A stretch of DNA of 64,000 nt from Chlorobiota bacterium (GCA_039810485.1 JBDHXA010000005.1:1192-65191), one strand, 5' to 3'; counted from the first letter of the stretch, positions 31,012 through 56,065 are shown. Numbers and translations are program-made. The notes: generated from the letters alone by a model not told the origin.

Positions 31012-32202
31012 ATGTCTATGTATAATATTAATCAATTAATCAATCGTTGCGAAGAACTAGCATTTGATTTAGATTATAATTGTGCGAAAGAGTGGAAAAA
31101 CGAAGATCCATCTCGTGTACTAGTTGGATATATGCCTATTTATTTCCCGCGTGAAATTGTCCATGCAGCCGGCGGCATGACGGTAGGCATTTTTGGCGGC
31201 GGAGATAGAAAGCAAATTATTAAAGGCGACGCATATTATCAGTCATATATTTGTCATATTCCAAGAAGTATTATAGATATGGCGCTTGACAAACATTATG
31301 ACAGCTTCGACGGTTTTATCTTCCCTTCAATATGTGATGTACTGCGAAATCTATCAGGAATTTTCAGACAAAAAGGTTTTGGAAAGTTTGTAAAGTATAT
31401 GGATTTTCCTCAAAATTTTCTACCGGAAGTTGGCGGTGTCTACTATCAGGACGAGATGCGCCATGTACTGCATTATATCAAAGAAATTAACGGAGTGGAA
31501 GTTACAATTGAAAAACTAAACCGTTCAATAGAGTTATATAATAGAAATCGTCGTCTTATTGCATTAATTTACGACATTCGCCAGAAATATCCTTGGAGAT
31601 TGTCTATGAAGGATTGGTATCATATTTTGCGAGCAGGCACTGTCATTCCGGTAGAGGAACATAATGAAATACTACAGCAAATCGCAGATTATATTAGGGA
31701 TGAAGTAGGAAAACCACAGGATAAGATTAAAGTGGTGCTTTCTGGTGCTTTCTGCGAACAGCCTTCTGTCGGTCTTATTCGCTCGATTGAAGATGCTGGA
31801 TGCTACATTGTAGATGATGATTTGCAATTAGGTTCCAGAATGATTATCGGTGATATTGATGCCACAACAGACAGTCCGCTGGCTGCAATAGCTAATGCTT
31901 ATATCAGTCAGAGTCAATACTCTTCCTCAATATATGATGTAGAAAATCCTAAAGAATACCGATTAGCTAAAATTGTGGAGGACAGAGGAGCCGACGGAGT
32001 TATTTTTGCTTCTGCCAGCTTTTGTGATCCGAGTTTGCTCGATGCCCCAATTTTTCAAAATGCCTTTGATAAAATGGGCATTCGATACATTGCTTTCCAA
32101 TTCAGCGAAAACATTAATCAGTTTAAGGTAATCAAAGAACAAGTAGGCGCATTTTCCGATTCCATTAAATTATGGGAAGATGAACCTGTACCCGTTGAAT
32201 AA
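31012..32202 (+). CDS. 2-hydroxyacyl-CoA dehydratase/benzoyl-CoA reductase family subunit (BcrC/BadD-like by size and position)
   Basis: 396 aa HGD-D family protein. First of four genes in a C-B-A-D-like order. Confidence 0.7.
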   Translation: MSMYNINQLINRCEELAFDLDYNCAKEWKNEDPSRVLVGYMPIYFPREIVHAAGGMTVGIFGGGDRKQIIKGDAYYQSYICHIPRSIIDMALDKHYDSFDGFIFPSICDVLRNLSGIFRQKGFGKFVKYMDFPQNFLPEVGGVYYQDEMRHVLHYIKEINGVEVTIEKLNRSIELYNRNRRLIALIYDIRQKYPWRLSMKDWYHILRAGTVIPVEEHNEILQQIADYIRDEVGKPQDKIKVVLSGAFCEQPSVGLIRSIEDAGCYIVDDDLQLGSRMIIGDIDATTDSPLAAIANAYISQSQYSSSIYDVENPKEYRLAKIVEDRGADGVIFASASFCDPSLLDAPIFQNAFDKMGIRYIAFQFSENINQFKVIKEQVGAFSDSIKLWEDEPVPVE

Positions 32203-32236
32203 AACCAAGTTATGTATAATATATAAATAAAAAAAT

Positions 32237-33523
32237 ATGGCAAAGGAAGTTATAAAAGAAAGAAGCATGATCCTTCAAAAAGAAATGATTGAAGGTCTCT
32301 TTAACGATTTGGAAAAAGCCCATGAAACAGGAAAAAAAGTATGCTATACTTTTGTTCCGGGAAATCTTTCCGAACTGATAAGAACTTTTGATATGCTACC
32401 GGTGTATCCCGAAATTAATGCACTGCAAAGCGCAATGCGTAAAAAATCAGCCGCGTATATCAAGGAAGCCGAGCGCCACGCACATTCTGAAGACGTATGT
32501 ACGTATGTAAAATGCGACGTTGGGATGTTGATGAAAGGAAACATTGGACCTACCGGACAAAAACTTCCGCCACCAGATATTCTCTTGCTTAGCTACACTG
32601 GTTGTTTCACTTTTATGAAATGGTTTGAAACGCTCAAAAGAGAATATCCAAACGCTACAGTGGTAATGATTCATACGCCATATCAAGAGAGTGGCACAAT
32701 GACGCCCGAAATGATAAATTATATGGTGAAGCAAATGAACGAGGAAGTAATTCCAAAAATGGAACAGGTCTCCGGCGTAAAATACGACGAAGAAAAACTC
32801 AAAAGTATTTTGGAACATTCGAAAGAAGCAGAAGATTGGATTACTAAAATATTTGACACCACCAAACATAAACCATCACCGATAGACGCTTATTTTGCCG
32901 GAGTATATTACATCGGACCAATTAATATTGGTTTCAGAGGCACGCCTGAGGCAGTTGAATATTATAAAGAATTGTATAATGAAATTCAGGAAAGAATTAG
33001 ATTAGGATTGGGACCTGTTACCCCGGAAGGTGAAATGCACGAGGAAAAATATCGGCTTGTAGTAGAAGGACCGCCAAATTGGACAAGTTTCCGTGAGTTC
33101 TGGAAAATATTCTATGATATGGGAGCTGTAATTGTTGCTTCGTCCTACACAAAAGTTGGAGGAGTATATGATCTTGGGTGGCGACACGACCCAGAAAAGC
33201 CGCTTCAATCTCTAGCCGAATATTGCATGAATTGCTATACAAACTTAAATATTCCGCAGCGCATAGATTTACTTACAAAATGTATTACTGAATATCAGGC
33301 GGACGGATATGTAACAAATTCAATAAAAAGCTGCAATTCATTCTCGGCAGGCCAGTTGGCTATGATGCGAGAAATTGAAGACCGCTTGGATATTCCGGTT
33401 GGATTTATTGAATCTGATTTAGTTGATCCTCGATATTTCTCATATTCTAATATAAAAAATCGTTTAGAGTCCTATTTTCAAATGTTGGCGCAGCGTAAAA
33501 TGATGGAAGCGCAAGAAGCGTAA
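32237..33523 (+). CDS. 2-hydroxyacyl-CoA dehydratase/benzoyl-CoA reductase family subunit (BcrB/BadE-like by size and position)
   Basis: 428 aa HGD-D family protein with Cys-containing segments. Second gene of the block. Confidence 0.7.
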   Translation: MAKEVIKERSMILQKEMIEGLFNDLEKAHETGKKVCYTFVPGNLSELIRTFDMLPVYPEINALQSAMRKKSAAYIKEAERHAHSEDVCTYVKCDVGMLMKGNIGPTGQKLPPPDILLLSYTGCFTFMKWFETLKREYPNATVVMIHTPYQESGTMTPEMINYMVKQMNEEVIPKMEQVSGVKYDEEKLKSILEHSKEAEDWITKIFDTTKHKPSPIDAYFAGVYYIGPINIGFRGTPEAVEYYKELYNEIQERIRLGLGPVTPEGEMHEEKYRLVVEGPPNWTSFREFWKIFYDMGAVIVASSYTKVGGVYDLGWRHDPEKPLQSLAEYCMNCYTNLNIPQRIDLLTKCITEYQADGYVTNSIKSCNSFSAGQLAMMREIEDRLDIPVGFIESDLVDPRYFSYSNIKNRLESYFQMLAQRKMMEAQEA

Positions 33524-33547
33524 TATCTATTTAGAAAGTAAAAAATT

Positions 33548-34975
33548 ATGAAAAAATATTTTTTAGGAATTGATCTTGGCTCTACTACTTCGAAAGCAGT
33601 TATTGTCAACGAAGCCGATGAAATTGTTGGCAGAGGTATCACAAATACCAGAGCAAACTACAAAGTAGCCGCAGATATAGCTCGCGAGCAGGCAATCTAT
33701 GACGCTCGCTTCAATCTGATTGAAAAAAGGATGAAAGACAGCATTGCAGGCAGATCAGAATTTAAAACTTACATGAAGGATTTGCGAAGCGTGTTTCAAT
33801 ACTGTCAGTTCAGAAGAAGAATGGACAGTTTGGAAAATATGCTTATTAAAACCGCTTCTGAATCAACACATCCTGAACGAGACACTATTGTAGAACGCCT
33901 TAAATCCATTATTGGCATTATTCGGCCGCAAATGCGTCATGAATTTATTCATGAAGGACTTGGCAGTAAAAATCAATTTTTCAGAGATATTGTCAGTGAA
34001 AAATATAATACCGAAGTCAGCAAAATTGAACCGAAATATTATGAGCCGTTAATGCTGGCATTTGACAAGAGCATTACGCCAATTGAAAATGAAATGGTGG
34101 ATTATTCTTTCAAAGAATTGGTGCTTGAATCAATGAAGATTCTGGAAGAAAAGTACGAAGGATTGGCTGACGAAAGAGAAGACGGAGGGAAAGAGTCGTG
34201 GTATTATGATGAAATGAACGCAGTAAAAAACGAATATAAAAATATTGAGCACACTCTTCGCTCGCATATCGAAGAAATAGCTGACGAGGAGATTTATATT
34301 GCAAAGATGGTTGGAACAGGATACGGAAGAGCGTTGCTGCCTTTCCCGGAAGATTGCATCAAGTCGGAAATCCTTTGCCATGCCTTTGGCGCTCATGCTG
34401 TTTTCCCGGGAACAAGAACAGTGCTTGATATCGGAGGTCAGGATACAAAAGCCATTCAAGTGGATAAATATGGCTTGGTTACAAGCTTTCATATGAATGA
34501 CAGATGCGCTGCGGGATGCGGCAGATATTTAGGATACATTGCCGACGAATTCGGATTGTCGCTCAACGAGTTAGGACCAGAGGCAAACAAAGCAAAAAAA
34601 GAAACGACAATTTGTTCGACATGCACTGTTTTCGCCGGAGCTGAAATAAAGGAATTGCTGCACAACGGCGAACAAAAGCCAGATATTCTGGCTGGACTTC
34701 ACAAATCTATTGTTCAACGAGCAATGTCGCTCATTGCACGTTCGGGTGGAGTAAGAAACGAATTTACTTTTACTGGCGGAGTAGCAAGGAATGAAGCTGT
34801 ATTGAAGTACGTGAAAAAAATGGTGATTGACTCCTATGGCGAAGTAACGATGAATATTCATACTGATTCAATTTTTATGGGCGCTTTGGGCGGCGCTATG
34901 TTTGCACGCCGAAATATAAGCACCGAACTGCCAAAAGGCACTATGATTAGAGAAACTGGCGACGTTAATAATTAA
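33548..34975 (+). CDS. BadF/BadG/BcrA/BcrD-type ATPase, long form (BcrA/BadF-like)
   Basis: 475 aa. Acetate/sugar-kinase-fold phosphate-1 motif GIDLGSTTSKAV and Cys pair CAAGCGRYLG typical of Fe-S-bridged activase ATPases. Has a ~190-aa insertion after phosphate-1, as in the large ATPase subunit of class I benzoyl-CoA reductase. Confidence 0.7.
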   Translation: MKKYFLGIDLGSTTSKAVIVNEADEIVGRGITNTRANYKVAADIAREQAIYDARFNLIEKRMKDSIAGRSEFKTYMKDLRSVFQYCQFRRRMDSLENMLIKTASESTHPERDTIVERLKSIIGIIRPQMRHEFIHEGLGSKNQFFRDIVSEKYNTEVSKIEPKYYEPLMLAFDKSITPIENEMVDYSFKELVLESMKILEEKYEGLADEREDGGKESWYYDEMNAVKNEYKNIEHTLRSHIEEIADEEIYIAKMVGTGYGRALLPFPEDCIKSEILCHAFGAHAVFPGTRTVLDIGGQDTKAIQVDKYGLVTSFHMNDRCAAGCGRYLGYIADEFGLSLNELGPEANKAKKETTICSTCTVFAGAEIKELLHNGEQKPDILAGLHKSIVQRAMSLIARSGGVRNEFTFTGGVARNEAVLKYVKKMVIDSYGEVTMNIHTDSIFMGALGGAMFARRNISTELPKGTMIRETGDVNN

Positions 34976-34988
34976 AGGAAACAATACA

Positions 34989-35843
34989 ATGGAAAATTCA
35001 ATTTATACAATGGGCATTGATGTTGGCGGCAGTTATGTTAAAACTGTTCTTATGCGCTATAATAAAGAGAGCGGACAACATCAATTAGTAGACAAACAAA
35101 CAGAAAAAATCAGAAAAAGAAATCCTAAAGATGTGGCTCACGACTCCATCGAAATGATTCTAGAACGCAATAATCTCAATTATGACAAGGATATTGCCTA
35201 TTTAGCTTCGACTGGAGAAGGCGAAATGGTCGAGAGAAAAACAGGACATTTCTACAGCATGACAACTCACGCTCGTGGCGGTGTCTTTTTCCATCCCGGC
35301 TCAAAAACAGTTGTTGATATGGGCGGCTTGTATGTTCGCGCAATTAAAATTGACGAACGCGGCAAAGTTCTGGATTATAAAATGACCGGTCAATGCGCCT
35401 CTGGTTCCGGACAGTTCATTGAAAATATATCACGATATCTTGGTTTGGCGGTAGAGGAAGTAGGAGATATTTCCATGCAAGCCGACAATCCCGAAGTTCC
35501 ATCAGGCATTTGTGCTGTTTTAGCAGAGACCGATGTTATTAACATGGTGTCCAAAGGAGCTTCTACACCCAATATAATCAAAGGCATTAATATATCTATC
35601 GCGCAAAGAGTTGTTAAACTTTTAAGCTCTCTAAAAGCAGAGTCGCCGATTATGTTGGTTGGAGGCATGGGCATGAATAAAGGAATGATCCAAGCTATTG
35701 AAGAGGTTGCTTCAGAGAATAAAAAAAGCAAACTTGAGTTTGTGTCGCATCCCGATGCAATCTTTTCAGGGGCTATCGGAGCTGCATTGTGGGGCGGCTA
35801 TCGCTATTATGTGCTTAAAGAAAAAGAAAAGCAAGCAGCATAA
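34989..35843 (+). CDS. BadF/BadG/BcrA/BcrD-type ATPase, short form (BcrD/BadG-like)
   Basis: 284 aa with GIDVGGSYVKTVLM and CASGSGQFIE motifs. Confidence 0.7.
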   Translation: MENSIYTMGIDVGGSYVKTVLMRYNKESGQHQLVDKQTEKIRKRNPKDVAHDSIEMILERNNLNYDKDIAYLASTGEGEMVERKTGHFYSMTTHARGGVFFHPGSKTVVDMGGLYVRAIKIDERGKVLDYKMTGQCASGSGQFIENISRYLGLAVEEVGDISMQADNPEVPSGICAVLAETDVINMVSKGASTPNIIKGINISIAQRVVKLLSSLKAESPIMLVGGMGMNKGMIQAIEEVASENKKSKLEFVSHPDAIFSGAIGAALWGGYRYYVLKEKEKQAA

Positions 35844-35887
35844 GAAATGGCTGTTTTTTCATAAACTGACTATAATGACTGATTGTA

Positions 35888-37636
35888 ATGGTGAATACAC
35901 TGCAATCCGCAACAATTCCGGGCAAGGCAAGGCAGAATATAGCAGTAATGCTTTCGGAAAATGCTGAAAAATTTGCTGAAAAATTTATTTATTGTGAAAA
36001 AAATCAAAACAATGAATATAAAGGGATTTTGTGGAAATCGTTTTATAATGATGCCCTAAATATAGCATGGAATCTGAAACAATCTGGGATTAAGAAAGGA
36101 ACTAAAGTTGTTCTTTACTGTCCTAATTCTCTCAATATGCTACTTGCTGAATTGGCTATTATGTCAATAGGTGCTATAGCTGTTCCTATCTTTGCCTATT
36201 TCAAAAAAAATACGTCAGAATTGCTGATAAATCATTCTGATGCCGAGTTCGTAATTTTAGCTGGTCAGTTTCAACTCAATGAAATGAGTCATGATCTACC
36301 CAAAATAAAATTAGTGTGGTCATTTGATGATGTTGAGAATAATACTCCTTTTGCAGTTCAAAAATTTGCCGATTTATTAAAAGATCGAAACGACATTGAT
36401 TTTGCCTTAGATATTAAAGCGCAGCCGAATGAAATATGTCTGAATATGTACACTTCTGGCACTATGGGGATTCCCAAATGCGTGCAGCTTACACATCAGA
36501 ACATTCTTTCGCAGCAAGCATCAATTCACACGGTCTTAAATGTGACGGCAGACGACAGGTTCCTTTCCTATTTGCCTTGGCATCATAGCTTTGGCGGAAT
36601 TTTTGAATTATTCAGCGCATTACACAATGGAGCTACATATTATTTAGAGAGCAGCTTTGGAAAAGATGCCAAATCCATATTTGAAAATTGGAGAAAAGTT
36701 CTGCCAACAGTTTTCTTTAGCGTCCCAAAGGTTTATCAATCTCTTTTTGAGCTGGCCAAAGAAAGCATAGAGGCCGAAAATGTTTTTTTTAATTCAGGGC
36801 TCAAATTCATTTTTACAGCTGCTGCAGCATTGCCTCAGCGACTATCAGATGAGTTTGAAAAACGTGGCATTGCCGTAATCGAGGGATGGGGGCTTACAGA
36901 AACATCGCCTTGCTGCACTCTCACAAATCCTAAGCTAAAACGCGAATCTGGAGTGGTTGGCATGCCTATTCCCGGCGTGAAAGTTCGAATTGCCGACGAT
37001 GATGAGATTCAAGTAAGCGGTCCTAATGTGATGGCTGGTTATTACCAAAATCCAGAGGCAAATGCTGAAGCATTCACTGAAGACGGCTGGTATAGAACTG
37101 GTGACGTCGGCGCAATTACTGAAAATGGATTAAAGCTTGTTTCAAGAAAAGATCGAATTTTTAAACTGTCAAACGGAGAAAAAGTAATTCCGACAGACTT
37201 AGAAAAAGCTATTGAATTAAAATGTCATTATGTGCAATATGTTGTTGTTGCAGGAAGCGGCGAAGAATATCCCGTCGCTTTAATATTTCCGAATAGAAAA
37301 CTGCTTGAAAATCCTGATCTTACGTTAAATACAGAGCAACAATGCGCTTGTCCGCAAAATATTAGCGAAATGGGGCGCTGTTTGCCGACCTGTCTTCAAT
37401 TGGCAAATGATTCAATAGGACAAAAATTCGCAAAAGTCAAATCTGTTGCAATTATAGACGATGTGCTTTCACTAGACAATAACATGCTGACTCCTTCAAT
37501 GAAAGTTGCGCCTAAAAACGTTGTGGATAAGTATAAAACCCATTTAAAGAATCTTTATGGCGATAATGTGCCAACTGATGAAGAAGTGTATATCATTGAA
37601 TTAGAACCTAAAAACAATTTGAAGCGATGTATATAA
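35888..37636 (+). CDS. AMP-dependent acyl-CoA synthetase/ligase
   Basis: 582 aa with AMP-binding signature YTSGTMGIPKCVQLTHQN. Substrate unknown; an aromatic or alicyclic acid is plausible from context. Confidence 0.85.
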   Translation: MVNTLQSATIPGKARQNIAVMLSENAEKFAEKFIYCEKNQNNEYKGILWKSFYNDALNIAWNLKQSGIKKGTKVVLYCPNSLNMLLAELAIMSIGAIAVPIFAYFKKNTSELLINHSDAEFVILAGQFQLNEMSHDLPKIKLVWSFDDVENNTPFAVQKFADLLKDRNDIDFALDIKAQPNEICLNMYTSGTMGIPKCVQLTHQNILSQQASIHTVLNVTADDRFLSYLPWHHSFGGIFELFSALHNGATYYLESSFGKDAKSIFENWRKVLPTVFFSVPKVYQSLFELAKESIEAENVFFNSGLKFIFTAAAALPQRLSDEFEKRGIAVIEGWGLTETSPCCTLTNPKLKRESGVVGMPIPGVKVRIADDDEIQVSGPNVMAGYYQNPEANAEAFTEDGWYRTGDVGAITENGLKLVSRKDRIFKLSNGEKVIPTDLEKAIELKCHYVQYVVVAGSGEEYPVALIFPNRKLLENPDLTLNTEQQCACPQNISEMGRCLPTCLQLANDSIGQKFAKVKSVAIIDDVLSLDNNMLTPSMKVAPKNVVDKYKTHLKNLYGDNVPTDEEVYIIELEPKNNLKRCI

Positions 37637-38838
37637 TCAAATCAACAGATAAAATGAAAACAATAATGGGCGAATATTTTCGCTCATTAGAAACAGGTGA
37701 AAAGAAGATTGCTTGGTGCACCAGCGTCGGACCTGCCGAACTTCTGCGATCATTTGGATTTGAAGTGTATTTTCCGGAAAATCACGGAGCATTGTTGGGA
37801 GCGACACGCACAGCTATGGATGTAATTCCAGAAGCAGTAAAAAGCGGATATTCTGGTCATGTATGCTCATATACAACTGCTGATATTGGCTCATATTTAA
37901 GAAATGAAACACCGCTAAAAAAGCACTATGGTCTGAAAGGACATCCCAAGCCAGACATAATCGCTTTCAACACCAATCAGTGCAGAGAAGTTCAAGATTG
38001 GTTTTATTTCTTTGCTAACGAGTTTGACTGTCCAATTGTAGGCATCACACCTCCGCGTCATTTGGAAGAAGTTAATCAAAAAGAAGTGGATTTGGTGGTT
38101 GAACAGTTCAAAGAAATGATACCGACTTGCGAGCATGTAAGCGGGCAGAAATATGACGAGGACAAATTCAAGGAAACTGTTCGCTTAAGCAAAGAAGCAA
38201 CGCTGTTGTGGCAAAAGGTTCTGAAAACTTCTACAGCCATGAACGCCCCAATCAGCTTCTTTGACGGCACAATCCACATGGGTCCGATTGTAGTGCTTCG
38301 TGGAACCCAGATTGCCAAAGATTATTACGCTGAATTGCTTGCCGAGCTTGAAGAAAATGTAAAAAATAATATTGGATTTCTGCTTAAAGCGAGAACGCGA
38401 ATCTTCTGGGAAGGAATGCCAATTTGGGGCAAACTTCGTATGCTGAGCGATTTATTTAATTCTAACGGAGCCGCAGTTGTTGCTTCAACCTATTGCAGTA
38501 GCTGGGTGTTCGATAAATTTGACGAGAACGATCCATGGAATTCGACTGCCAGAGCATACACGGAAATTTTTATCAATCGCGGCGAGAAGGCTAAAATGAA
38601 AATGCTGGGCGACTGGTTCAAGGAATACAGCATTGACGGCATTGTGTATCACGATTCAAAAACATGCTTTAATAATTCCAATGCCAAGTTTGGCATGCCG
38701 CAGCGCTTGAAAGAAATAACAGGAATTCCGGCGTTAGTTATTGAAGGTGATCTATGCGATTTAAGATTCTTCAGCGAGGGTCAAAGCATTACAAAAATTG
38801 AAACCTTTTTAGAACAGCTTGAAGAAAGCAAAGTATAA
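37627..38838 (+). CDS. Third 2-hydroxyacyl-CoA dehydratase-family (HGD-D) subunit
   Basis: 403 aa. N-terminal region WCTSVGPAELLRSFGFEVYFPENHGA is typical of the family. It has no partner second subunit directly adjacent and precedes the reductase-activase fusion. Confidence 0.7.
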   Translation: MYIIKSTDKMKTIMGEYFRSLETGEKKIAWCTSVGPAELLRSFGFEVYFPENHGALLGATRTAMDVIPEAVKSGYSGHVCSYTTADIGSYLRNETPLKKHYGLKGHPKPDIIAFNTNQCREVQDWFYFFANEFDCPIVGITPPRHLEEVNQKEVDLVVEQFKEMIPTCEHVSGQKYDEDKFKETVRLSKEATLLWQKVLKTSTAMNAPISFFDGTIHMGPIVVLRGTQIAKDYYAELLAELEENVKNNIGFLLKARTRIFWEGMPIWGKLRMLSDLFNSNGAAVVASTYCSSWVFDKFDENDPWNSTARAYTEIFINRGEKAKMKMLGDWFKEYSIDGIVYHDSKTCFNNSNAKFGMPQRLKEITGIPALVIEGDLCDLRFFSEGQSITKIETFLEQLEESKV

Positions 38839-38840
38839 AA

Positions 38841-48796: not shown

Positions 48797-48797
48797 A

Positions 48798-49817
48798 ATG
48801 GAAACTGTATCATACTCGTACAAACCAAAGGATTATGCGAGTGATCAAGAAGTTAAATGGTGCCCGGGTTGCGGGGATTATGCCATTATTAATGCTGTGC
48901 AAAAAGCATTTTCTGAATTAAATTTAAAAAAAGAAGACACAGCGATTATTTCAGGTATAGGATGCTCGTCAAGATTTCCATATTATATGGATACATTCGG
49001 TTTCCATACTATTCACGGTAGGCCTGCCGCTGTTGCAACCGGCGTCAAATTGGCAAATCCTCGTTTAGATGTATGGATTGTCAGCGGCGATGGAGATTCT
49101 CTCGCAATAGGAGGAAATCATTTTATACATTTGATAAGAAGAAATATAAATGTAAATTTATTGCTGTTTAATAATGAAATATATGGATTAACCAAAGGGC
49201 AGCACTCGCCAACAACTAAAAAAGATGTTTTAACAAAATCTGCACCATTTGGAACAATTGAAACCCCGTTTAATGTGGGTGAGCTAACGCTTGGAGCGCA
49301 AGGACAATTTTTTGCGCGCGTTCCTGACACCGATGTGAAATTAATGACCAAAGTATTCGTAGAAGCCGAAAAACATAAAGGAACATCCATCGTGGAAGTG
49401 CTACAAAATTGCGTGATATTTAATGACAACACTCACGAGTTTATAACGGCCAAAGAAAACCGCTTGGATAATCAAATAATTCTGGAACATGGCAAACCCA
49501 TGCTTTTCGGAGCAAACAACAGCAAAGGGCTTCGGTTGAACGGACTTGAAATTGAAGTCGTAACAATTGGAGAAAATGGCATTGTTGAAGAAGATTTGCT
49601 TGTGCATGACGCTTATGCAAAATCTTCTGCATTGCATAGAATGTTAATACAAATGAAAGCGCCAGAGTTCCCTGTTGCAATGGGCGTTATCAGAAATACT
49701 TCTGCACCGGTTTTTGACGAAGATTTTCACGAACAAATAAATCAAGGAAAAAATACGCCAAAAATTCATTCTGTAGATGACATGTTTTTTAGTGGAAATA
49801 CATTTGAAGTTAAATAA
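48798..49817 (+). CDS. korB: 2-oxoacid:ferredoxin oxidoreductase beta subunit (TPP/Fe-S)
   Basis: 339 aa. CPGCGDY motif and TPP-binding GDGD region. Confidence 0.9.
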   Translation: METVSYSYKPKDYASDQEVKWCPGCGDYAIINAVQKAFSELNLKKEDTAIISGIGCSSRFPYYMDTFGFHTIHGRPAAVATGVKLANPRLDVWIVSGDGDSLAIGGNHFIHLIRRNINVNLLLFNNEIYGLTKGQHSPTTKKDVLTKSAPFGTIETPFNVGELTLGAQGQFFARVPDTDVKLMTKVFVEAEKHKGTSIVEVLQNCVIFNDNTHEFITAKENRLDNQIILEHGKPMLFGANNSKGLRLNGLEIEVVTIGENGIVEEDLLVHDAYAKSSALHRMLIQMKAPEFPVAMGVIRNTSAPVFDEDFHEQINQGKNTPKIHSVDDMFFSGNTFEVK

Positions 49818-49831
49818 ATTGGAACACTACA

Positions 49832-50179
49832 ATGGCTATTAAAATCACTGACGACTGTATCAACTGCGGAGCTTGCGAGCCCGAATGTCCAAACAATGCT
49901 ATCTATGCAAATGCCGAACCTTGGACAATGGCAGAAGGAACAAATATCACATCCGATTTTACTTTGTTTACTGGTAAAACGATTGATGCTTTTGAAGAAC
50001 AAGAGCCAATATCTGACGAGTTTTATTACATCGTAACAGATAAGTGCACAGAATGTGTAGGTTTTCACGATGAACCGCAATGTGCTACAGTTTGCCCGGT
50101 AGATTGTTGTTTGCCTGATCCTGATCATCAAGAAACAAGAGAAAAATTGGAAGAAAAGCAGCGGCGACTGCATGAATAA
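49832..50179 (+). CDS. 2[4Fe-4S] ferredoxin with internal insertion
   Basis: 115 aa. CINCGACEPECP and CTECVGFHDEPQCATVCP cluster motifs. Confidence 0.85.
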   Translation: MAIKITDDCINCGACEPECPNNAIYANAEPWTMAEGTNITSDFTLFTGKTIDAFEEQEPISDEFYYIVTDKCTECVGFHDEPQCATVCPVDCCLPDPDHQETREKLEEKQRRLHE

Positions 50180-50199
50180 AATTATTTTTAAACTGCAAT

Positions 50200-50802
50200 A
50201 TGAATAATGCTGCTGTTGTAATTTTAGCCGGCGGGCAATCCCAAAGAATGGGATTCCCTAAATTGCTTCTACCATTCAGCTGTAATAATAATTTTATTGA
50301 ACAAATCGTTTCAATTTACCTGCAAGTTATACGGGAAGATATATTTATTATTTTGAATGAAACAGTGAAAAATAATAATGCGAATTATTTTTCTCAGATG
50401 CAAGGTGTAAATATAATACTTAATTCTTCTCCAGAACTCGGCAGAACATTCTCCATTAAATTAGGATTAGAAAGAATAAATGCAAACAAGATATTTATTC
50501 AAAATACGGATAATCCATTTGTAACCAAGAAATTATTGTACGCTTTAATTTCTCAGCGGACTGAAAACGGCTATGTGTCACCTTTAATAAACGGCAAAGG
50601 TGCGCATCCGATTTTGCTTTGCGGCGAAGCAATTGAAACAGTCAAAAATGCCTCAAATGAACTTAGTTTAAAAGATGTTTTAAGTTCTTGTTATCGTAAG
50701 AATATTACAGTGAATAATGCGTTGTTTACTGTAAATATTGACACACCAGAGATATACAAACAATATTTTCCTGATTTGCAATTTCCATTGCAGTATATAT
50801 AA
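50200..50802 (+). CDS. mocA: MobA-like NTP transferase; candidate molybdenum cofactor cytidylyltransferase
   Basis: 200 aa with ILAGGQSQRMGFPKLLL. Adjacent to XdhC and the XDH-family enzyme. It is a second MobA-type gene, separate from the one in the Moco operon. Confidence 0.65.
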   Translation: MNNAAVVILAGGQSQRMGFPKLLLPFSCNNNFIEQIVSIYLQVIREDIFIILNETVKNNNANYFSQMQGVNIILNSSPELGRTFSIKLGLERINANKIFIQNTDNPFVTKKLLYALISQRTENGYVSPLINGKGAHPILLCGEAIETVKNASNELSLKDVLSSCYRKNITVNNALFTVNIDTPEIYKQYFPDLQFPLQYI

Positions 50803-50804
50803 TA

Positions 50805-51611
50805 ATGGAAAATGAAAATTCGCATAATGTGCAAAGAATTAAATCGGCTCTTTGCATCATTGTAGAAACAAAAGGTTCAACGCCTCGCAAAGCGGGAACT
50901 AAAATGCGAGTATACGAAAATCGTAAAATTGAAGGGAGCATTGGCGGCGGAGCATTCGAAAAAAAAGTTGTAGAAAACGCCGTTATTCAAATCGAAAAAG
51001 GAATTCCCTGTTTGTTTGAGCATCATTTATTGCAAGAGCATGAGATGTGTTGCGGAGGAAGCGTAAAAGTGTATATTGAACCAGAACTGCAAAAAAATCA
51101 TTTAATCATTTTTGGCGCAGGTCATGTTGGACAGGAATTGGCGAAACAGGCTTTGGGAGCAGAGTTTGAAGTGAGTGTCTATGATGATAGAGAAGAATTC
51201 ATTCAGCAAATTACAGATGTAAAAATTGATATTCAATGCTTGGATTTTGCTGATGCTTTGAAACAAATTTCATTTAATGAAAACACGTATATAGCTATCC
51301 TCACTTACCGACACGATATAGACAGGGCGTTACTTCGATATTGTTTGCGAAAAGATAGAGCCTATCTCGGATTTATTGGTAGCCAACGAAAGATATTAGT
51401 TACAAGGAAAATGATGCTACAAGAAGGCATTGCAAGTGAAGAAGAATTGGATAAAGTGGATATGCCGATAGGGTTGAACATTGGTGCTGAAACGCCTTTT
51501 GAAATTGCTGTGAGTATCATTGCTAAAATGATAGCAGTAAAAAATAAAGAGCGAGTGAATACGATAAATCAAATTAAAGACATAGAACAATGCATAAAAG
51601 AACAGCCATAA
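50805..51611 (+). CDS. xdhC: XdhC/CoxI-family Moco-insertion accessory protein
   Basis: 268 aa. Rossmann-like IIFGAGHVGQELAK. Confidence 0.75.
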   Translation: MENENSHNVQRIKSALCIIVETKGSTPRKAGTKMRVYENRKIEGSIGGGAFEKKVVENAVIQIEKGIPCLFEHHLLQEHEMCCGGSVKVYIEPELQKNHLIIFGAGHVGQELAKQALGAEFEVSVYDDREEFIQQITDVKIDIQCLDFADALKQISFNENTYIAILTYRHDIDRALLRYCLRKDRAYLGFIGSQRKILVTRKMMLQEGIASEEELDKVDMPIGLNIGAETPFEIAVSIIAKMIAVKNKERVNTINQIKDIEQCIKEQP

Positions 51612-52312
51612 TCACAGGAGCAGCAAAGGGAATCGGAAAATCCATTGCACAAAGGCTTTCACAAGAAGGCTACTATTGTGTGTTGGTGGATGTGGATGAA
51701 GCGAATGGAAAAATGCTCGCTCAGGAATTAGGAAATAATGCTTCTTATTACAAATGTGATATCAGTAATGAAACAGAAGTGAAAGCACTTTTTGCTTCTT
51801 TGGAAAGTGTAGATGTTTTGGTCAATAATGCAGGTATCATTCGTGATAATATGATATGGAAAATGTCGGTAGAAGATTTTGATTTGGTTACAGACATTAA
51901 CCTGAAAGGAACATGGATGATGTGTCGTGAAGCAGCAATAAAAATGAAAGAACAAAAGAGTGGGAGAATTGTAAACATTGCTTCACGTGCTTGGTTAGGA
52001 AATCCGGGTCAGTCTAACTATGCGGCTTCAAAAGCCGGTGTGGTAAGCCTTACAAGGGTTTTAGCTTTGGAGTTAGGGAAATATGGTGTTTTGGTCAATG
52101 CCATTGCACCCGGTTTGATAGACACTCCTTTGGCACAAGGGTTAGCCAATGAAGTGAGAGAAAAACTCATTCAGGCGCAGCCGACAAAAAGCATGGGGAC
52201 ACCCGAAGATGTGGCGCAGGTTGTCGCTTTTCTTTGTGATGTAAAGACACAATTCATAACAGGCCAAACGATTTATGTGGACGGAGGAAAAAGTATAGGT
52301 GCCGGATTATAA
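51590..52312 (+). CDS. Short-chain dehydrogenase/reductase (FabG-like)
   Basis: 240 aa. TGAAKGIGKSIA cofactor motif and catalytic YAASKAG. Confidence 0.85.
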   Translation: MHKRTAIITGAAKGIGKSIAQRLSQEGYYCVLVDVDEANGKMLAQELGNNASYYKCDISNETEVKALFASLESVDVLVNNAGIIRDNMIWKMSVEDFDLVTDINLKGTWMMCREAAIKMKEQKSGRIVNIASRAWLGNPGQSNYAASKAGVVSLTRVLALELGKYGVLVNAIAPGLIDTPLAQGLANEVREKLIQAQPTKSMGTPEDVAQVVAFLCDVKTQFITGQTIYVDGGKSIGAGL

Positions 52313-52323
52313 AATGAAAAACC

Positions 52324-55116
52324 ATGAGAAAGATAAATTTAAAAATCAACAATAAACCCTTTACGTTTCTGGCAGAAGATTCAGAAATGCTATCTCATGT
52401 AATACGTGAGCGTGCAGGGCTTACAGGAACTAAAGTAGGATGCAGTCAAGGTAGTTGCGGTGCGTGTACGGTCATTGCAGATGGTGAACCTGTGCTGAGT
52501 TGCATCACGCCTGCATTCCGATTTGATAATGCTGAAATACAAACAGTAGAAGGTCTTGCAGAAAATGGAACTCCTGATTTATTACAGGAATTATTTGTAC
52601 AAAAAGGTGCTATCCAATGTGGTTTTTGTACTCCCGGAATGGTATTGACTGCTAAAGATTTTGTGGATAAGAACCCCGATGCATCTACGCAAGATATTAA
52701 AGAGGCTTTATCAGGAAACCTTTGCCGTTGCACCGGTTACAAGAAAATTATTGAAGCCGTAACAGAATATACCGAACTTAAAAAACAAGGAGTTGAACAT
52801 TTACCGCCTGTTGAAGAAAACAGTAAAATTATCGGTATTGGCAGACCCTATATTGAAGCAGAAAAGAAGGTATTGGGCAAAGCACTTTATGCAGATGATT
52901 TGCAATTTAGAAATCTACTTTACTGCAAATTTTTAAGAAGTACACACGCTCATGCACTCATCGAAAACATTGATATTTCAGAAGCAAAGGCAATGGAAGG
53001 TGTAGTTTATGTTGCGATAGGAAATGATTTGCCGGAGAAGTTTGGTGTGTTGCCGGTATCTCATGATGAAACCGCTATGGCTATTGAAAAGACACGCTAT
53101 TTTGGAGAAATAGTGGCAGCCGTAGCAGCAGAAAGTTTTGAAATTGCCGAAGCTGCTTGCAAGAAAATAAAAGTAAAATACCAACCTCTCAGAACCTATT
53201 TCAACATTGAAGATTCAATTCATGATGTGGGAGATAATGCTAAGATTCATGAGCATTGCAAGTTCAACAATAACATTCATAAAAAGGCAGAATTGCGTTT
53301 TGGAAATCAAGAAGAAGCTTTTAAAAATTCGGATATTATTTCTGAAATGGAATTTGATGTAGAAGGCGTTTCACATGCTTTTACAGAACCCCATTCAGCA
53401 ACAGCCTATTGGGACGAAAATGGATTAACGATTCATACGGCTACACAAGTTCCACATTATTTGCATAGAGCCTTAGCCAAAGTAATGCAAGTGCCTTTGA
53501 GTAGAGTGCGTGTTATTAAACCCTATGTGGGTGGCGGTTTTGGTGGTAAGAGTGATCCTTTTCCTCACGAAATGATTATTTCTCACATTGCCCGAAAAAC
53601 AGGCAGACCGGTTCGTTCTACCTTTACAAGAGAAGAAGTTTTTTTGAGTAACCATGGAAGGCATCCTTCTAAGTTCAAAATGAAAATCGGTGCTGACAGC
53701 AATGGTATGTTGAAAGTGTTAGATGCTGATGTAGCTATTGATGGCGGTGCTTATGGCAGTTTTGGAGTAGTTACTTCCTACTACAATGGCGTGCTATTGC
53801 AAGCTCCTTATGAGATAAAAGATTTTGGTTTTAAAACCTATCGTGTTTATACCAACAAACCTCAATGCGGTGCAATGCGTGGGCATGGTGCGGTGAATAC
53901 ACGCTTTGCAGCCGAGTCGTTGATAGATGATATTGCACATCGCTTGAACATAGACCCTTGCGAGATACGGTTAAAAAATTTCTACAAAGAAAATGTGATT
54001 ACCATCGGGCATTTCAGAATCACATCCAACGGCAGTAGAATGGCGTTGCAGCAAGTGATGGAGCGTTCCGGTTGGAAAGAAAAAAGAGGAAATCTTCCTG
54101 CAGGGCGAGGCATTGGTGTGGGTTGTGGCTTCTTTATAAGCGGCAGTGCATTGCCTATTATTTGGAATGAATATCCGCAAACTGTGGTGCATTTGAAATT
54201 GGATTTTGATGGTCGGATTTTGATTTCTTCCGGTGCAAGTGATATTGGTCAAGGAAGCGATACGATGCTGGCAATGGTTGTGGCTGAAACAATGGGAATT
54301 GATATGCAAAAAGTGTTTGTGTTGGCTGCCGATACTTTACTCACACCTGTTGATTTGGGAAGCTATTCCAGTCGGGTAACTTTTATGTGTGGCAATGCAG
54401 CAAAGCAAGCAGCAGAGAAACTAAGAGCAGAAATTTTAGAAGCTGTCTCCAAGCGAAAAGAAATGGCAATAGAAGAATTATACATCGAAAATAGCCGTGT
54501 TCGTTCTAATGATAATAGTGTTAATCTGGAATGGTTAGAAGCGGTTGATATGGCAACGGCTCATCGAGGTGCATTGACGGTAAGTGGCAATTATATTTCA
54601 CCCAAATTAGGAGGAGATTTCAAAGGCTCTGGAGCGGGTTTAAGTCCTTCCTACAGCTTTGGTGCTTGCATTGCAGAAGTGAATGTAAACAAACAAACCG
54701 GACAAGTGGAAGTGCTAAATGTTTGGGGTGCGCATGACTGCGGAAAAGCCCTGAATCCATTGGCAGTGGAAGGACAATTAGAAGGTTCATGGCACATGGG
54801 AATAGGGCAGGCATTGAGCGAAGAAATGAAATATTATGATGGACTTCTGCTTAATAATAATTTCTGCGATTATAAAATTCCTACCACTTTAGACACACCC
54901 GAAATTGATACTAATATCATTGAGTCAGGCGACCCTGAAGGACCTTATGGAGCAAAAGAATGTGGTGAAGGTGCGCTGCATCCGGTCATTCCGGCTATTG
55001 CTAATGCTATCTTTAATGCTTGTGGAGTGAGGATAACAAAATTGCCAATTAAAGCAGATGAAGTGTTAGCACAGATAAAATCTAATATGAAAACACAAAT
55101 GAATAAGGTTGATTAA
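52324..55116 (+). CDS. Xanthine-dehydrogenase-family molybdoenzyme, fused [2Fe-2S] (gamma-like) + molybdopterin-binding (alpha-like) subunit; 4-hydroxybenzoyl-CoA reductase HcrC-HcrA-like
   Basis: 930 aa. N-terminal ~160 aa carry two 2Fe-2S motifs (GCSQGSCGACTV, CGFCTPGM, CRCTGY). The remainder is an aldehyde-oxidase/XDH large-subunit region with the Moco motif GGGFGGK. Confidence 0.85.
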   Translation: MRKINLKINNKPFTFLAEDSEMLSHVIRERAGLTGTKVGCSQGSCGACTVIADGEPVLSCITPAFRFDNAEIQTVEGLAENGTPDLLQELFVQKGAIQCGFCTPGMVLTAKDFVDKNPDASTQDIKEALSGNLCRCTGYKKIIEAVTEYTELKKQGVEHLPPVEENSKIIGIGRPYIEAEKKVLGKALYADDLQFRNLLYCKFLRSTHAHALIENIDISEAKAMEGVVYVAIGNDLPEKFGVLPVSHDETAMAIEKTRYFGEIVAAVAAESFEIAEAACKKIKVKYQPLRTYFNIEDSIHDVGDNAKIHEHCKFNNNIHKKAELRFGNQEEAFKNSDIISEMEFDVEGVSHAFTEPHSATAYWDENGLTIHTATQVPHYLHRALAKVMQVPLSRVRVIKPYVGGGFGGKSDPFPHEMIISHIARKTGRPVRSTFTREEVFLSNHGRHPSKFKMKIGADSNGMLKVLDADVAIDGGAYGSFGVVTSYYNGVLLQAPYEIKDFGFKTYRVYTNKPQCGAMRGHGAVNTRFAAESLIDDIAHRLNIDPCEIRLKNFYKENVITIGHFRITSNGSRMALQQVMERSGWKEKRGNLPAGRGIGVGCGFFISGSALPIIWNEYPQTVVHLKLDFDGRILISSGASDIGQGSDTMLAMVVAETMGIDMQKVFVLAADTLLTPVDLGSYSSRVTFMCGNAAKQAAEKLRAEILEAVSKRKEMAIEELYIENSRVRSNDNSVNLEWLEAVDMATAHRGALTVSGNYISPKLGGDFKGSGAGLSPSYSFGACIAEVNVNKQTGQVEVLNVWGAHDCGKALNPLAVEGQLEGSWHMGIGQALSEEMKYYDGLLLNNNFCDYKIPTTLDTPEIDTNIIESGDPEGPYGAKECGEGALHPVIPAIANAIFNACGVRITKLPIKADEVLAQIKSNMKTQMNKVD

Positions 55117-56065
55117 AATTAAAATTATGGAAACATTGCAAGCAACATATATCAAAGTGAAGTCGGTAGCAGAAGCTATTGAAAAAATAAATGAGATACC
55201 CAATACCATTTTTGTGGCAGGTGGTACCGATGTGTTTGTCAATAAGCAGCAAGGAAATATTGATGCAGACTGTTATCTTGATATTTCCGGAATAGACGAA
55301 TTGAAAACTGTAACTATTCACTCTGACAGATTAGAAATTGGTGCGACTGTAACTTTAGAAAAGATTTCAAAATCAAAAGATGTAGAAAAATATTTCCCGA
55401 CATTAATAGAAGCGGCATTGGCAGTAGCAACTCCTGTCATCCGTAAGACTGCAACTATTGGAGGCAATATTTTGTGCGAAAATCGTTGTTTCTATTATAA
55501 TCAAAGCGACTGGTGGCGTGAGTCTGTTGGGCATTGCCTGAAATGCAACGGAGATATTTGTATCGCATCCGGAGGAAAGAAAAACTGCTTTTCAAAATTA
55601 GTAAGTGATACGGCACCCGTTTTAATAGCTTATGGTGCTTCCGTAAATTTAATTAACGCAAGTGGAGAAAGGAAAGTGCCTTTAGAAAGCTTATACACCG
55701 GTGATGGCGTGGACTCTGTCAATTTAGATAAAAGGACTTTAGTAAAATCTATCGAGATTCCTTTTAGCGATAAGAAAGTAATTTTTAAAAAACTCAGACC
55801 CAGAAAAACATTAGATTTTACTTCATTGACAACAGCAGTTTCCCACAATGCCAATGATAATTTGAGAATTGTTGTTGGTGGTGTTGATCCAAAGCCAATA
55901 ATTGTTGAAGGCAATTTGAAAGAAATAGCAGTAGATACATTAGTAACAACAGCAGTGAAAAAACCTAAGGCAGTAGAGAATGATTTTTATTCACGCACTT
56001 ACAGAAAAGAAATGATTAGAGTATTTGTGGAAGAAAGCCTTTTTCTATTAAAAATTAAAAATTAA
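55109..56065 (+). CDS. FAD-binding subunit of the XDH-family enzyme with a Cys-rich insertion (HcrB-like)
   Basis: 318 aa. CO-dehydrogenase-flavoprotein-like FAD domain (FVAGGTDVFV). Insertion CENRCFYYNQSDWWRESVGHCLKCNGDIC has five Cys, reminiscent of the extra [4Fe-4S] loop of the 4-hydroxybenzoyl-CoA reductase beta subunit. The start may instead be Met at 55127. Confidence 0.8.
   Translation: MIKIKIMETLQATYIKVKSVAEAIEKINEIPNTIFVAGGTDVFVNKQQGNIDADCYLDISGIDELKTVTIHSDRLEIGATVTLEKISKSKDVEKYFPTLIEAALAVATPVIRKTATIGGNILCENRCFYYNQSDWWRESVGHCLKCNGDICIASGGKKNCFSKLVSDTAPVLIAYGASVNLINASGERKVPLESLYTGDGVDSVNLDKRTLVKSIEIPFSDKKVIFKKLRPRKTLDFTSLTTAVSHNANDNLRIVVGGVDPKPIIVEGNLKEIAVDTLVTTAVKKPKAVENDFYSRTYRKEMIRVFVEESLFLLKIKN

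Follow-up and report, generated by a model that had tools for sequence, protein, structure and literature searches.

A predicted Thauera-type benzoyl-CoA operon with an embedded radical-enzyme module in an uncultured, nitrate-respiring member of the Bacteroidota

A 64,000-nt stretch of AT-rich bacterial DNA (GCA_039810485.1 JBDHXA010000005.1:1192-65191; hereafter "the window", meaning the whole stretch that was analysed) carries a long series of co-directional genes reminiscent of the anaerobic benzoyl-CoA pathway. This raises the question whether a genuine ATP-dependent benzoyl-CoA reductase is encoded there together with its lower pathway, and what role the dehydratase-like genes in its midst could play. 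The best overall explanation, to which we assign a probability of about three in four on the basis of the sequence, is a Thauera-type benzoyl-CoA operon with an embedded radical-enzyme module, comprising an acyl-CoA ligase, a third, single HGD-D protein (HGD3), and a fusion of a PanE-type reductase with an activase. The benzoyl-CoA pathway is a known system in a new host group, and its assignment is a secure prediction, resting on conserved gene order and on profile matches at the equivalog level; novelty lies in the ligase/HGD3/PanE-activase module. To our knowledge, ATP-dependent benzoyl-CoA reductases have been studied almost solely in a few Proteobacteria.

Between positions 31012 and 56065, calling of open reading frames (ORFs) yields 20 tightly packed ORFs on the + strand, with intergenic gaps of -22 to +44 nt. 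Identities were assigned by Pfam domains and by NCBIfam equivalog models with curated cutoffs; for the pathway-specific models, E-values range from 1e-63 to 1e-246, far beyond chance. The genes are, with protein lengths in amino acids (aa):

31012-32202, + strand: BcrC, beta-like HGD-D subunit, 396 aa; TIGR02263 417.1 bits (cutoff 421.15) vs. 172 bits for HadC
32237-33523, + strand: BcrB, alpha-like active-site HGD-D subunit, 428 aa; TIGR02260 661.4 bits (cutoff 486.55) vs. 180 bits for HadB
33548-34975, + strand: BcrA, long ATPase subunit, 475 aa; TIGR02259 408.9 bits over the full profile (cutoff 578)
34989-35843, + strand: BcrD, short ATPase subunit, 284 aa; TIGR02261 323.3 bits (cutoff 312.85)
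35888-37636, + strand: AMP-forming acyl-CoA ligase, 582 aa; AMP-binding and AMP-binding_C_3 domains
37627-38838, + strand: HGD3, third, single alpha-type HGD-D protein of the benzoyl-CoA reductase/2-hydroxyacyl-CoA dehydratase (BCR/HAD) radical-enzyme family, 403 aa
38841-40685, + strand: fusion protein, 614 aa; N-terminal NAD(P)H 2-oxoacid reductase domain of the PanE/ApbA type (residues 1 to ~315), followed by an activase ATPase domain of the HAD type (residues ~350-600)
40689-41885, + strand: thiolase, divergent, 398 aa; Thiolase_N 67 bits, Thiolase_C 61 bits
41896-43986, + strand: 3-hydroxyacyl-CoA dehydrogenase/enoyl-CoA hydratase fusion, divergent, 696 aa; weak 3HCDH_N and ECH matches
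43993-45051, + strand: Had, 6-hydroxycyclohex-1-ene-1-carbonyl-CoA dehydrogenase, 352 aa; TIGR03201 451.4 bits (cutoff 338.65)
45075-46178, + strand: Oah, ring-opening 6-oxocyclohex-1-ene-1-carbonyl-CoA hydrolase, 367 aa; TIGR03200 595.2 bits (cutoff 464.45)
46181-46954, + strand: Dch-like cyclohexa-1,5-dienecarbonyl-CoA hydratase, 257 aa; best match TIGR03189, 223.9 bits (cutoff 292.5)
46970-49817, + strand: KorA (608 aa) and KorB (339 aa), two-subunit 2-oxoacid:ferredoxin oxidoreductase
49832-50179, + strand: 2[4Fe-4S] ferredoxin of the YfhL/Alvin type, 115 aa; NF033683 100.6 bits (cutoff 86)
50200-52312, + strand: MocA-like cytidylyltransferase, XdhC-like maturation factor and FabG-like SDR (Pfam, NCBIfam)
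52324-56065, + strand: 4-hydroxybenzoyl-CoA reductase (4-HBCR)-like enzyme, as a fused gamma (two [2Fe-2S] clusters) and alpha subunit (930 aa) and a beta subunit (318 aa)

Every ORF listed in the original prediction is present on the + strand with the position and length given here, and with the domains described there (Pfam); its inventory missed HGD3 (37627-38838), the PanE-activase fusion (38841-40685), and the MocA/XdhC/SDR genes (50200-52312). Likewise, it had placed the array correctly at 31012-56065 but ended it too early, since the genes continue in the same direction, after two gaps of 57 nt, with a hemerythrin gene and a MoaC-MoaB fusion that ends at 57598. The whole co-directional array (31012-57598, ~26.6 kb, ~23 genes) contains no gap above 57 nt and, as judged from this layout, is a single operon-like array in an uncultured nitrate-respiring member of the Bacteroidota. 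Its GC content of 39% (31012-56065) compares with 38% in the window.

The first four genes display the subunit order C-B-A-D, with two HGD-D proteins followed by two different BcrAD_BadFG ATPases (Pfam, NCBIfam). As originally predicted, they match bcrCBAD in domain, size, and order, and both HGD-D subunits are of the Bcr and not the dehydratase type (661 vs. 180 and 417 vs. 172 bits). BcrB and BcrD exceed their equivalog cutoffs, BcrC lies marginally below (417 vs. 421 bits) and BcrA clearly below (409 vs. 578 bits), the latter scoring 184 bits with the generic activase model. Models for the Azoarcus-type Bzd enzyme reach merely 22-147 bits on these four genes, which therefore are of the Thauera/Bcr subtype. 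The claim that a long and a short ATPase together mark a benzoyl-CoA reductase holds for this subtype but not for such reductases in general, given the lengths of MbdQ (269 aa) and MbdP (273 aa).

Residues required for cofactor binding point in the same direction. The best solved relatives of the reductase subunits are MbdO and MbdQ; for BcrB, a PDB search returned MbdO first (214 bits), and Cys88, Cys123, Cys366, and the "YPE" Glu have aligned counterparts in MbdO, HadB, and BzdO. The roles of the active-site cluster Cys and the catalytic Glu in this family have been described (PMC11971306). BcrC has six Cys that do not vary among 45 orthologues, which would be consistent with an [8Fe-9S] cluster like that of BzdN. 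All three ATPases, i.e., BcrA, BcrD, and the activase domain of the fusion, keep the Cys pair of the bridging cluster, 39 residues apart (Cys320/Cys359 in BcrA, Cys136/Cys175 in BcrD, Cys469/Cys508 in the activase domain); this spacing is that of the activase cluster ligands. The 3-methylbenzoyl-CoA reductase MbdONQP (PDB 9g87/9gai) and BzdNOPQ (PDB 8s02; PMC11971306) share the three-Cys active-site cluster and the Glu with the enzyme of the window, but differ from it in that both Mbd ATPases are short (see above) and that BzdO is distant from BcrB (70 bits), with its His131 replaced by Phe in BcrB as well as in MbdO. Taken together, BcrCBAD is securely predicted to be a Thauera-type class I, ATP-dependent benzoyl-CoA reductase.

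Of the lower-pathway genes, Had and Oah score above their cutoffs; Dch finds its best match in the corresponding model at a score below the cutoff. This is the identity originally proposed for the zinc-dependent alcohol dehydrogenase, the long crotonase, and the short crotonase, respectively, and the three genes are adjacent in ~50 related loci. The thiolase and the dehydrogenase/hydratase fusion are divergent in the window; in most relatives, the thiolase slot is occupied by a standard 419-aa thiolase, and clear 668-aa equivalents of the fusion exist in 40 related loci. KorA matches TIGR03710 (OAFO_sf) with 637.9 bits (cutoff 482.75), and KorB, which contains a thiamine diphosphate domain, matches TIGR02177 with 251.6 bits, marginally under the cutoff of 261.9. 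In the ferredoxin, an insert of ~40 aa is flanked by CxxCxxCxxxCP and CxxCx8CxxxCP. These scores and motifs confirm KorAB and the 2[4Fe-4S] ferredoxin; the two match a Thauera-type electron supply, with the substrate of KorAB being predicted.

For the terminal molybdoenzyme, all three parts score under the NCBIfam equivalog cutoffs (alpha: TIGR03194, 818 bits, cutoff 995; beta: TIGR03195, 214 bits, cutoff 405). However, the alpha part matches Thauera aromatica 4-HBCR (1rm6_A) with 603 bits vs. 321 bits for the next structure, and the beta part gives 142 bits. The Cys-rich [4Fe-4S] loop of the FAD-binding beta subunit, with its six Cys, aligns residue for residue with 1rm6_B; it is conserved in the relatives and absent from generic Xdh-type neighbours. 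The earlier description as 4-HBCR-like is thus sustained by both the nearest structure and the loop. Compared with HcrCAB of T. aromatica (PDB 1rm6), the Xdh-family alpha, beta, and gamma parts and the loop are shared; here, in contrast, gamma is fused to the N-terminus of alpha.

From these assignments, a route from benzoyl-CoA onwards can be proposed. BcrCBAD would reduce benzoyl-CoA to cyclohexa-1,5-diene-1-carbonyl-CoA (1,5-dienoyl-CoA) at the expense of ATP and reduced ferredoxin; the ring would next be hydrated by Dch, oxidised by Had, and opened by Oah, yielding 3-hydroxypimelyl-CoA, from which the dehydrogenase/hydratase fusion and the thiolase would lead into beta-oxidation. KorAB together with the ferredoxin would regenerate low-potential electrons, and 4-HBCR, served by its own cofactor-maturation genes, would convert 4-hydroxybenzoyl-CoA to benzoyl-CoA.

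The likeness to the T. aromatica pathway extends from the C-B-A-D order with a long BcrA and a short BcrD to equivalog-level Had and Oah, the two-subunit KorAB, the Alvin-type 2[4Fe-4S] ferredoxin, and a context of nitrate respiration. Unlike in T. aromatica, the host is an AT-rich member of the Bacteroidota (38% GC), BcrA and BcrC remain under the equivalog cutoffs, the cluster is devoid of a benzoate-CoA-ligase-type ligase, the hcr genes are contained in the same operon, and the ligase/HGD3/PanE-activase module is inserted between bcrD and the lower-pathway genes. As far as we know, this module is not part of proteobacterial clusters.

What, then, is the module? The cluster does have dehydratase-like parts, which the original prediction missed: HGD3 and a homodimer-type activase are present and are conserved core members. 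The prediction was right about an acyl-CoA ligase downstream of the reductase genes; its role as the plain entry ligase of the pathway is doubtful, because ligases of this kind keep company with HGD-D and activase genes where no Bcr genes are found, as in a Bcr-less contig in which the ligase adjoining an HGD-D/activase pair is 36% identical to that of the window. The enzyme is FadD-like (AMP-binding_C_3) and not of the benzoate-CoA-ligase type; among PDB entries, generic adenylate-forming enzymes alone were found, with at most 114 bits, which says nothing about the substrate. Judged from these gene neighbourhoods, the ligase belongs to the HGD3 module.

HGD3 scores higher with the HadB model than with the BcrB model of NCBIfam (216 vs. 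161 bits), and in a separate comparison HadB likewise leads any reductase subunit (249 vs. 160 bits); the alignment with HadB (3o3m_A) covers its full length. Cys31, Cys80, Cys119, Cys347, and Glu51 are invariant across the family, down to 36% identity, and all of these except Cys31 align with the cluster ligands and Glu55 of HadB. The cluster Cys and the catalytic Glu kept by HGD3 are those of HadB and BzdO (PMC11971306). Within the Bacteroidota, six Cys of HGD3 are invariant, of which Cys290 aligns with a Cys of the double-cubane cluster protein DCCP; overall, HGD3 is as conserved as BcrB, with 172 of 403 columns at least 98% identical.

The PanE-activase fusion exceeds the cutoffs of the models for both halves (TIGR00241, activase, 175.8 bits, cutoff 125.4; TIGR00745, PanE, 157.7 bits, cutoff 141). 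Its PanE domain aligns over the full length with structures of KPR and D-2-hydroxyacid dehydrogenases, conserves a Rossmann motif and the residues K196, N200, S266, D270, and E278, and keeps the sequences WxK...N, PS(L/M)xxD, and TEI(E/D), which we take to be the KPR active-site motifs. The activase domain, in which a DLGS motif, Cys469, and Cys508 are invariant, is most similar to HadI (133 bits). The public names of the fusion, "2-dehydropantoate 2-reductase" and, from IMG, "(R)-2-hydroxyacyl-CoA dehydratase activating ATPase", cover half of the protein each, and HGD3 goes by "BcrC/BadD/HgdB" or by "2-hydroxyacyl-CoA dehydratase family protein". Annotations that carry these names should be read with caution.

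Two characterised systems are close enough for comparison. With the (R)-2-hydroxyisocaproyl-CoA dehydratase HadBC of Clostridioides difficile and its activator HadI (PDB 3o3m, 4eht), the module shares the full-length alignment of HGD3, three cluster Cys and the Glu55 equivalent, an activase with both bridging Cys, and the company of a 2-oxoacid reductase and a CoA-activating enzyme. It differs in the lack of a HadC-like beta subunit, the extra invariant Cys31, a reductase of the PanE/KPR instead of the 2-Hacid_dh family that is fused to the activase or, elsewhere, to the HGD-D protein, an ATP-dependent ligase in place of the CoA-transferase, and its location in a respiratory benzoyl-CoA operon and not in an amino-acid fermentation pathway. 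The partners of a dehydratase pathway are, hence, represented by analogous functions from different families, namely a PanE/KPR-family reductase and an ATP-dependent (AMP- or ADP-forming) ligase. With DCCP and its ATP-dependent reductase (PDB 7yyl, 6eno), the module has in common a single HGD-D-type protein served by one activase-type ATPase, and the aligned Cys of the Bacteroidota HGD3; the similarity is, however, weak and limited to the C-terminal half (39 bits; NF040772, 73 bits, cutoff 350), and in the wider HGD3 family the number of invariant Cys drops to four. In the literature searched, including for PanE together with 2-hydroxyacyl-CoA dehydratase, the ligase/HGD-D/PanE-activase module was not found.

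The phenyllactate dehydratase system FldABC/FldI is analogous to HadBC/HadI, and all characterised 2-hydroxyacyl-CoA dehydratases known to us are alpha/beta heterodimers. HGD3, lacking a partner subunit, may work like a canonical 2-hydroxyacyl-CoA dehydratase, yet it is not classed as one.

How widespread the arrangement is can be judged from a search for the fusion in one genome per GTDB species, where 165 places encode it. The best 80 of these 165 are almost all from metagenome-assembled genomes (MAGs) of Bacteroidota, with a few labelled Ignavibacteria and none evidently a cultured isolate, and among them the core order BcrCBAD-(ligase or ADP-forming synthetase)-HGD3-PanE/activase-thiolase-Had-Oah-Dch recurs wherever the contig is long enough; gene order is thereby repeated in dozens of independent contigs. 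Family counts over 76 related loci are headed by the fusion (76) and HGD3 (74), followed by BcrD (63), BcrA and Had (54 each), thiolase (52), Oah (51), BcrC and Dch (48 each), the dehydrogenase/hydratase (40+9), the ligase (45), and, within 10 kb, KorAB (17-18). Orthologues of the fusion with the same architecture are 66-87% identical in a protein search and 62-86% in genome loci. Those of BcrB reach 84-95% identity in MAGs labelled Bacteroidia, Flavobacteriales, Vicingaceae, Saprospiraceae, Sphingobacteriaceae, and others, and are already named "benzoyl-CoA reductase subunit B" by PGAP and IMG. The original expectation that a complete pathway would be unusual in such a genome is, hence, not upheld; the cluster is unusual solely in that no carrier organism has been studied. 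Our literature search on class I benzoyl-CoA reductases of Bacteroidota returned nothing specific besides PMC8099898 and PMC11971306, the former mentioning in passing a Flavobacteriales MAG from a nitrate-reducing benzene culture that expresses benzoyl-CoA degradation genes, peptidases, and peptide uptake systems.

The ligase slot is informative. In 20 loci, it is filled by a non-homologous ADP-forming acyl-CoA synthetase accompanied by a small AMP-binding_C_3-like ORF, and such a non-orthologous replacement suggests that a step from acid to CoA ester is required at this position. The cluster is not confined to AT-rich genomes, since a 189-kb contig with 68% GC (L158, WBZY01000034.1) carries the order BcrCBAD-Lig-HGD3-PanE/activase-Had-Oah-Dch at 59-77% identity, owing either to horizontal transfer or to an unrecognised host group. 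In two loci (L046, 10001-13115; L047), the fusion and a 419-aa thiolase stand within 10 kb of no Bcr, HGD3, Had, or Oah gene, in the neighbourhood of genes for LytTR, PASTA, and type IX secretion system (T9SS)-tail proteins; these loci are either remnants or chimeric assemblies and are treated as exceptions or assembly artefacts.

Downstream of the fusion, gene content varies. Eight loci have hydantoinase A/B genes (acetophenone/acetone carboxylase/oxoprolinase family) there, e.g., L051 (14070-16208), L023 (16311-17984), L042, and L060, and some Bacteroidota loci have RidA, a saccharopine-dehydrogenase-like gene, or ACAD, which suggests variable peripheral routes.

Distant HGD3 relatives (36-53% identity) provided further loci, including ones from other phyla, in which the module occurs apart from Bcr clusters. 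In a Myxococcota MAG, a PanE-HGD-D fusion and a separate activase (53% and 35% identity) lie beside an Xdh-family enzyme, and a second PanE-HGD-D fusion was found in another locus. Where Bcr genes are lacking, an HGD-D protein and an activase go with the same ligase type (the 36% identical ligase mentioned above, with PanE nearby) or with an ADP-forming synthetase; in another context, HGD-D and activase stand alone. Such a change of fusion partner, with PanE attached here to the activase and elsewhere to HGD-D, classically indicates that proteins act together, and, along with the Bcr-free occurrence, it argues that ligase, HGD-D, PanE, and activase form one functional module.

A metagenome scan also revealed unfused and reshuffled versions inside other benzoyl-CoA clusters (L122, L142, and L144), with the order BcrA-BcrD-ADP-forming synthetase-PanE-Had-Oah-Dch-HGD3-activase-thiolase-dehydrogenase-ACAD in L122; in L119, a distant reductase of class I type adjoins the module. 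In the 17 kb of L094 that were examined, PanE, dehydrogenase/hydratase, HGD3, activase, ligase, two crotonases, and a Cys-loop 4-HBCR are neighbours, and Bcr genes are absent. Approximately one third of the long loci tie the module to bona fide benzoyl-CoA genes. Xdh-family enzymes without the loop recur next to HGD3 and the activase in other loci (L147, ~8001-11000; L083, 13019-18157; L113, L139, L152, and L155); in L147, their genes lie between PanE and the activase.

For the function of the module, we tentatively propose a route from arylpyruvates or aryl-lactates via cinnamoyl- or coumaroyl-CoA to benzoyl-CoA or 4-hydroxybenzoyl-CoA. The PanE domain would reduce phenylpyruvate or 4-hydroxyphenylpyruvate to the (R)-2-hydroxy acid, which the ligase would convert to its CoA ester; the activase, reduced by the same ferredoxin that serves the reductase, would activate HGD3 by ATP-driven one-electron transfer, and HGD3 would remove water to give cinnamoyl-CoA or 4-coumaroyl-CoA, to be shortened by the hydratase/dehydrogenase and the thiolase. 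The aryl substrate is suggested by the embedding of the module in benzoyl-CoA operons that also contain hydratase/dehydrogenase, thiolase, and 4-HBCR. This reading gives every gene of the operon a role, and it fits the Flavobacteriales MAG in which peptidases, peptide uptake systems, and benzoyl-CoA enzymes are expressed (PMC8099898).

Several observations weigh against this picture. BcrA, BcrC, Dch, HcrA, and HcrB score under the curated equivalog cutoffs, and the window is without a glutaryl-CoA dehydrogenase, an aminotransferase, or an aromatic-acid transporter. The beta-oxidation genes would be needed for 3-hydroxypimelyl-CoA anyway and, therefore, do not discriminate between routes for the module. 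HGD3 is a single gene in every context examined, without a beta HGD-D partner, and its invariant Cys31 is absent in HadB and common to MbdO and BcrB, which hints at a different chemistry. Finally, other lineages place the module next to Xdh-family enzymes without the 4-HBCR loop, or next to nothing recognisable, so that its substrate need not be aromatic everywhere.

Cys31 also stands at the centre of the alternative that survives best, which we nevertheless regard as unlikely. There, the ligase would be the entry for benzoate or 4-hydroxybenzoate, and HGD3 with the PanE-activase would constitute a second ATP-dependent ketyl-radical reductase or dehydroxylase acting on a substituted aryl- or alicyclic CoA ester (e.g., an ortho-hydroxylated benzoyl-CoA) instead of an aryl-lactyl-CoA dehydratase. 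The position of Cys31, shared by HGD3, MbdO, and BcrB but not by HadB, would be accounted for, as would the six invariant Cys of the Bacteroidota HGD3 with Cys290 aligned to the DCCP Cys; no other CoA ligase is present in the cluster, and the module is tightly linked to class I clusters, among which L119 and L122 show at least two subtypes. However, HGD3 prefers the HadB model to that of any reductase subunit in both comparisons given above, has no beta-like partner of its own, and is accompanied by the ligase even where no Bcr genes are nearby, and the PanE domain, fused to HGD-D or activase depending on the lineage, would be left without a role.

Quite improbable, by comparison, is a C5-dicarboxylate link, in which 2-oxoglutarate, (R)-2-hydroxyglutarate, 2-hydroxyglutaryl-CoA, and glutaconyl-CoA would connect to the lower benzoyl-CoA pathway, either as an inlet for glutamate and 2-oxoglutarate or, run backwards, as a means of supplying KorAB again with 2-oxoglutarate, 1:1 with benzoyl-CoA. 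The functions of PanE, ligase, HGD-D, and activase do match the steps of the hydroxyglutarate pathway, and an acyl-CoA dehydrogenase adjoins the module in some related loci. KorAB and the ferredoxin are encoded in the same operon, yet KorAB lies within 10 kb in merely 17-18 of the 76 loci, whereas the module is nearly always there. The reversible ADP-forming synthetases in 20 loci would suit the link; the AMP-forming ligase, which holds the slot at 45 loci, favours the direction from acid to CoA ester and counts against the reverse loop. Furthermore, a hydroxyglutarate route would be of no obvious need to a nitrate respirer, and the searches made gave no specific similarity to HgdAB.

A reading of the first four genes as a 2-hydroxyacyl-CoA dehydratase and its two activators, accompanied by generic beta-oxidation crotonases, is scarcely credible, since the common BCR/HAD superfamily to which all of them belong (PMC11971306) and the sub-cutoff scores of BcrA, BcrC, and Dch are outweighed by Bcr models scoring 2.4- to 3.7-fold above Had models (in bits) on both HGD-D subunits, by BcrB and BcrD exceeding the trusted cutoffs, by Had and Oah, specific for the dearomatised ring, doing the same, and by the heterodimeric long/short ATPase pair of Thauera BcrA/BcrD; this dehydratase-type grouping, also considered in the original prediction, fails for the genes listed there on NCBIfam model scores.

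Other ideas about the module were disfavoured or rejected. A reverse loop from glutaconyl-CoA to 2-oxoglutarate is disfavoured by the AMP-forming ligase in the slot at most loci. PanE cannot hand electrons from NAD(P)H to the activase cluster, as no flavin is present and a cluster that takes up single electrons cannot be supplied by a hydride donor. In a mandelate/phenylglyoxylate route, mandelyl-CoA would offer no beta-hydrogen for a HAD-type elimination. Finally, HGD3 does not borrow BcrC as its beta subunit, given that it occurs alone where Bcr genes are absent.

Returning to the arylpyruvate/aryl-lactate route, a broader interpretation, which we put forward as possible though doubtful, is that HGD3, the PanE-fused activase, and the ligase represent an undescribed single-subunit branch of the BCR/HAD family that opens an anaerobic route from 2-oxo and 2-hydroxy acids derived from aromatic amino acids via cinnamoyl- or coumaroyl-CoA to benzoyl-CoA. 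Candidate inputs are phenylpyruvate/phenyllactate and 4-hydroxyphenylpyruvate/4-hydroxyphenyllactate. If true, complete oxidation of aromatic amino acids with nitrate, by way of an ATP-dependent ring reductase, would be a trait of many uncultured Bacteroidota and Ignavibacteria with a proteolytic lifestyle. As a lead that can be tested, the module may point to a new ketyl-radical enzyme as well as to a peripheral entry into benzoyl-CoA metabolism that has gone unrecognised. The pathway itself bears on ecology: a complete Thauera-type pathway, conserved as an operon-like unit, is predicted for many uncultured Bacteroidota from sediments, groundwater, and wastewater, where members of this abundant phylum would be direct consumers of aromatic carbon under nitrate-reducing conditions and not scavengers alone.

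Around the cluster, the following features are found:

12667-20111, + strand: nar locus with cytochrome c (287 aa), NarG-like protein (1207 aa), NarH (496 aa, Nitr_red_bet_C), a 234-aa ORF, and NarI (241 aa)
20170-30032, + strand: hemerythrin-domain protein, MFS transporter, SLAC1/TehA-type anion channel, MoaA, MoeA, TauE, MobA-like protein, MoaD (ThiS), MoeB, and MoaE
30033-31011, + strand: presumed promoter/regulatory region upstream of bcrC, AT-rich and intergenic, 979 bp
56123-57598, + strand: hemerythrin-domain protein and MoaC-MoaB/Mog fusion, extending the co-directional array

The narGHJI genes, in which the 234-aa ORF without a Pfam match occupies the NarJ position, lie directly upstream of the molybdenum cofactor (Moco) genes and the bcr operon. 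Class I enzymes are known to go with facultative, nitrate-respiring hosts (PMC11971306), and narGHJI, the cytochrome c, the MFS transporter, and the Moco genes fit this link; the transporter resembles nitrate/nitrite transporters and may be NarK-like. The nar, Moco, and bcr genes are on the same strand and form an "anaerobic lifestyle" island of ~45 kb.

Within the presumed regulatory region, the motif ATAKCYGACWA occurs in four direct copies (30641, 30687, 30732, and 30767; spacing 46, 45, and 35 nt), 235-370 nt upstream of bcrC, with a further intergenic copy on the - strand (12080-12090) upstream of the nar operon; altogether, the window contains six matches vs. 0.17 expected. The motif was not found upstream of bcrC in the related loci, the closest one (L003) included, and, being not conserved, is not counted as evidence. 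A scan of the whole window against Rfam at gathering thresholds detected no RNA family and, therefore, no Moco or other riboswitch upstream of bcrC; scanning downstream of the array for sigma-70 promoters and terminators gave nothing above shuffled expectation.

Two hemerythrin-domain genes flank the island (20170-20838 and 56123-56632), and nine related loci likewise have hemerythrin genes beside hcr; a function in sensing O2 or NO, or in protecting oxygen-sensitive enzymes, is possible. Beyond the array (57641-64000), there are a 127-aa ORF without a Pfam match and genes for a MORN-repeat protein, a histidine kinase, an ECF-type sigma factor, a DUF6789 protein, and a cytochrome P460-like protein, with a non-coding gap of ~1.1 kb at 58441-59521. 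At the other end of the window, unrelated to the finding, a 1266-aa protein (5156-8956) combines TPR repeats with a transglutaminase-like core and DUF3857/DUF3858.

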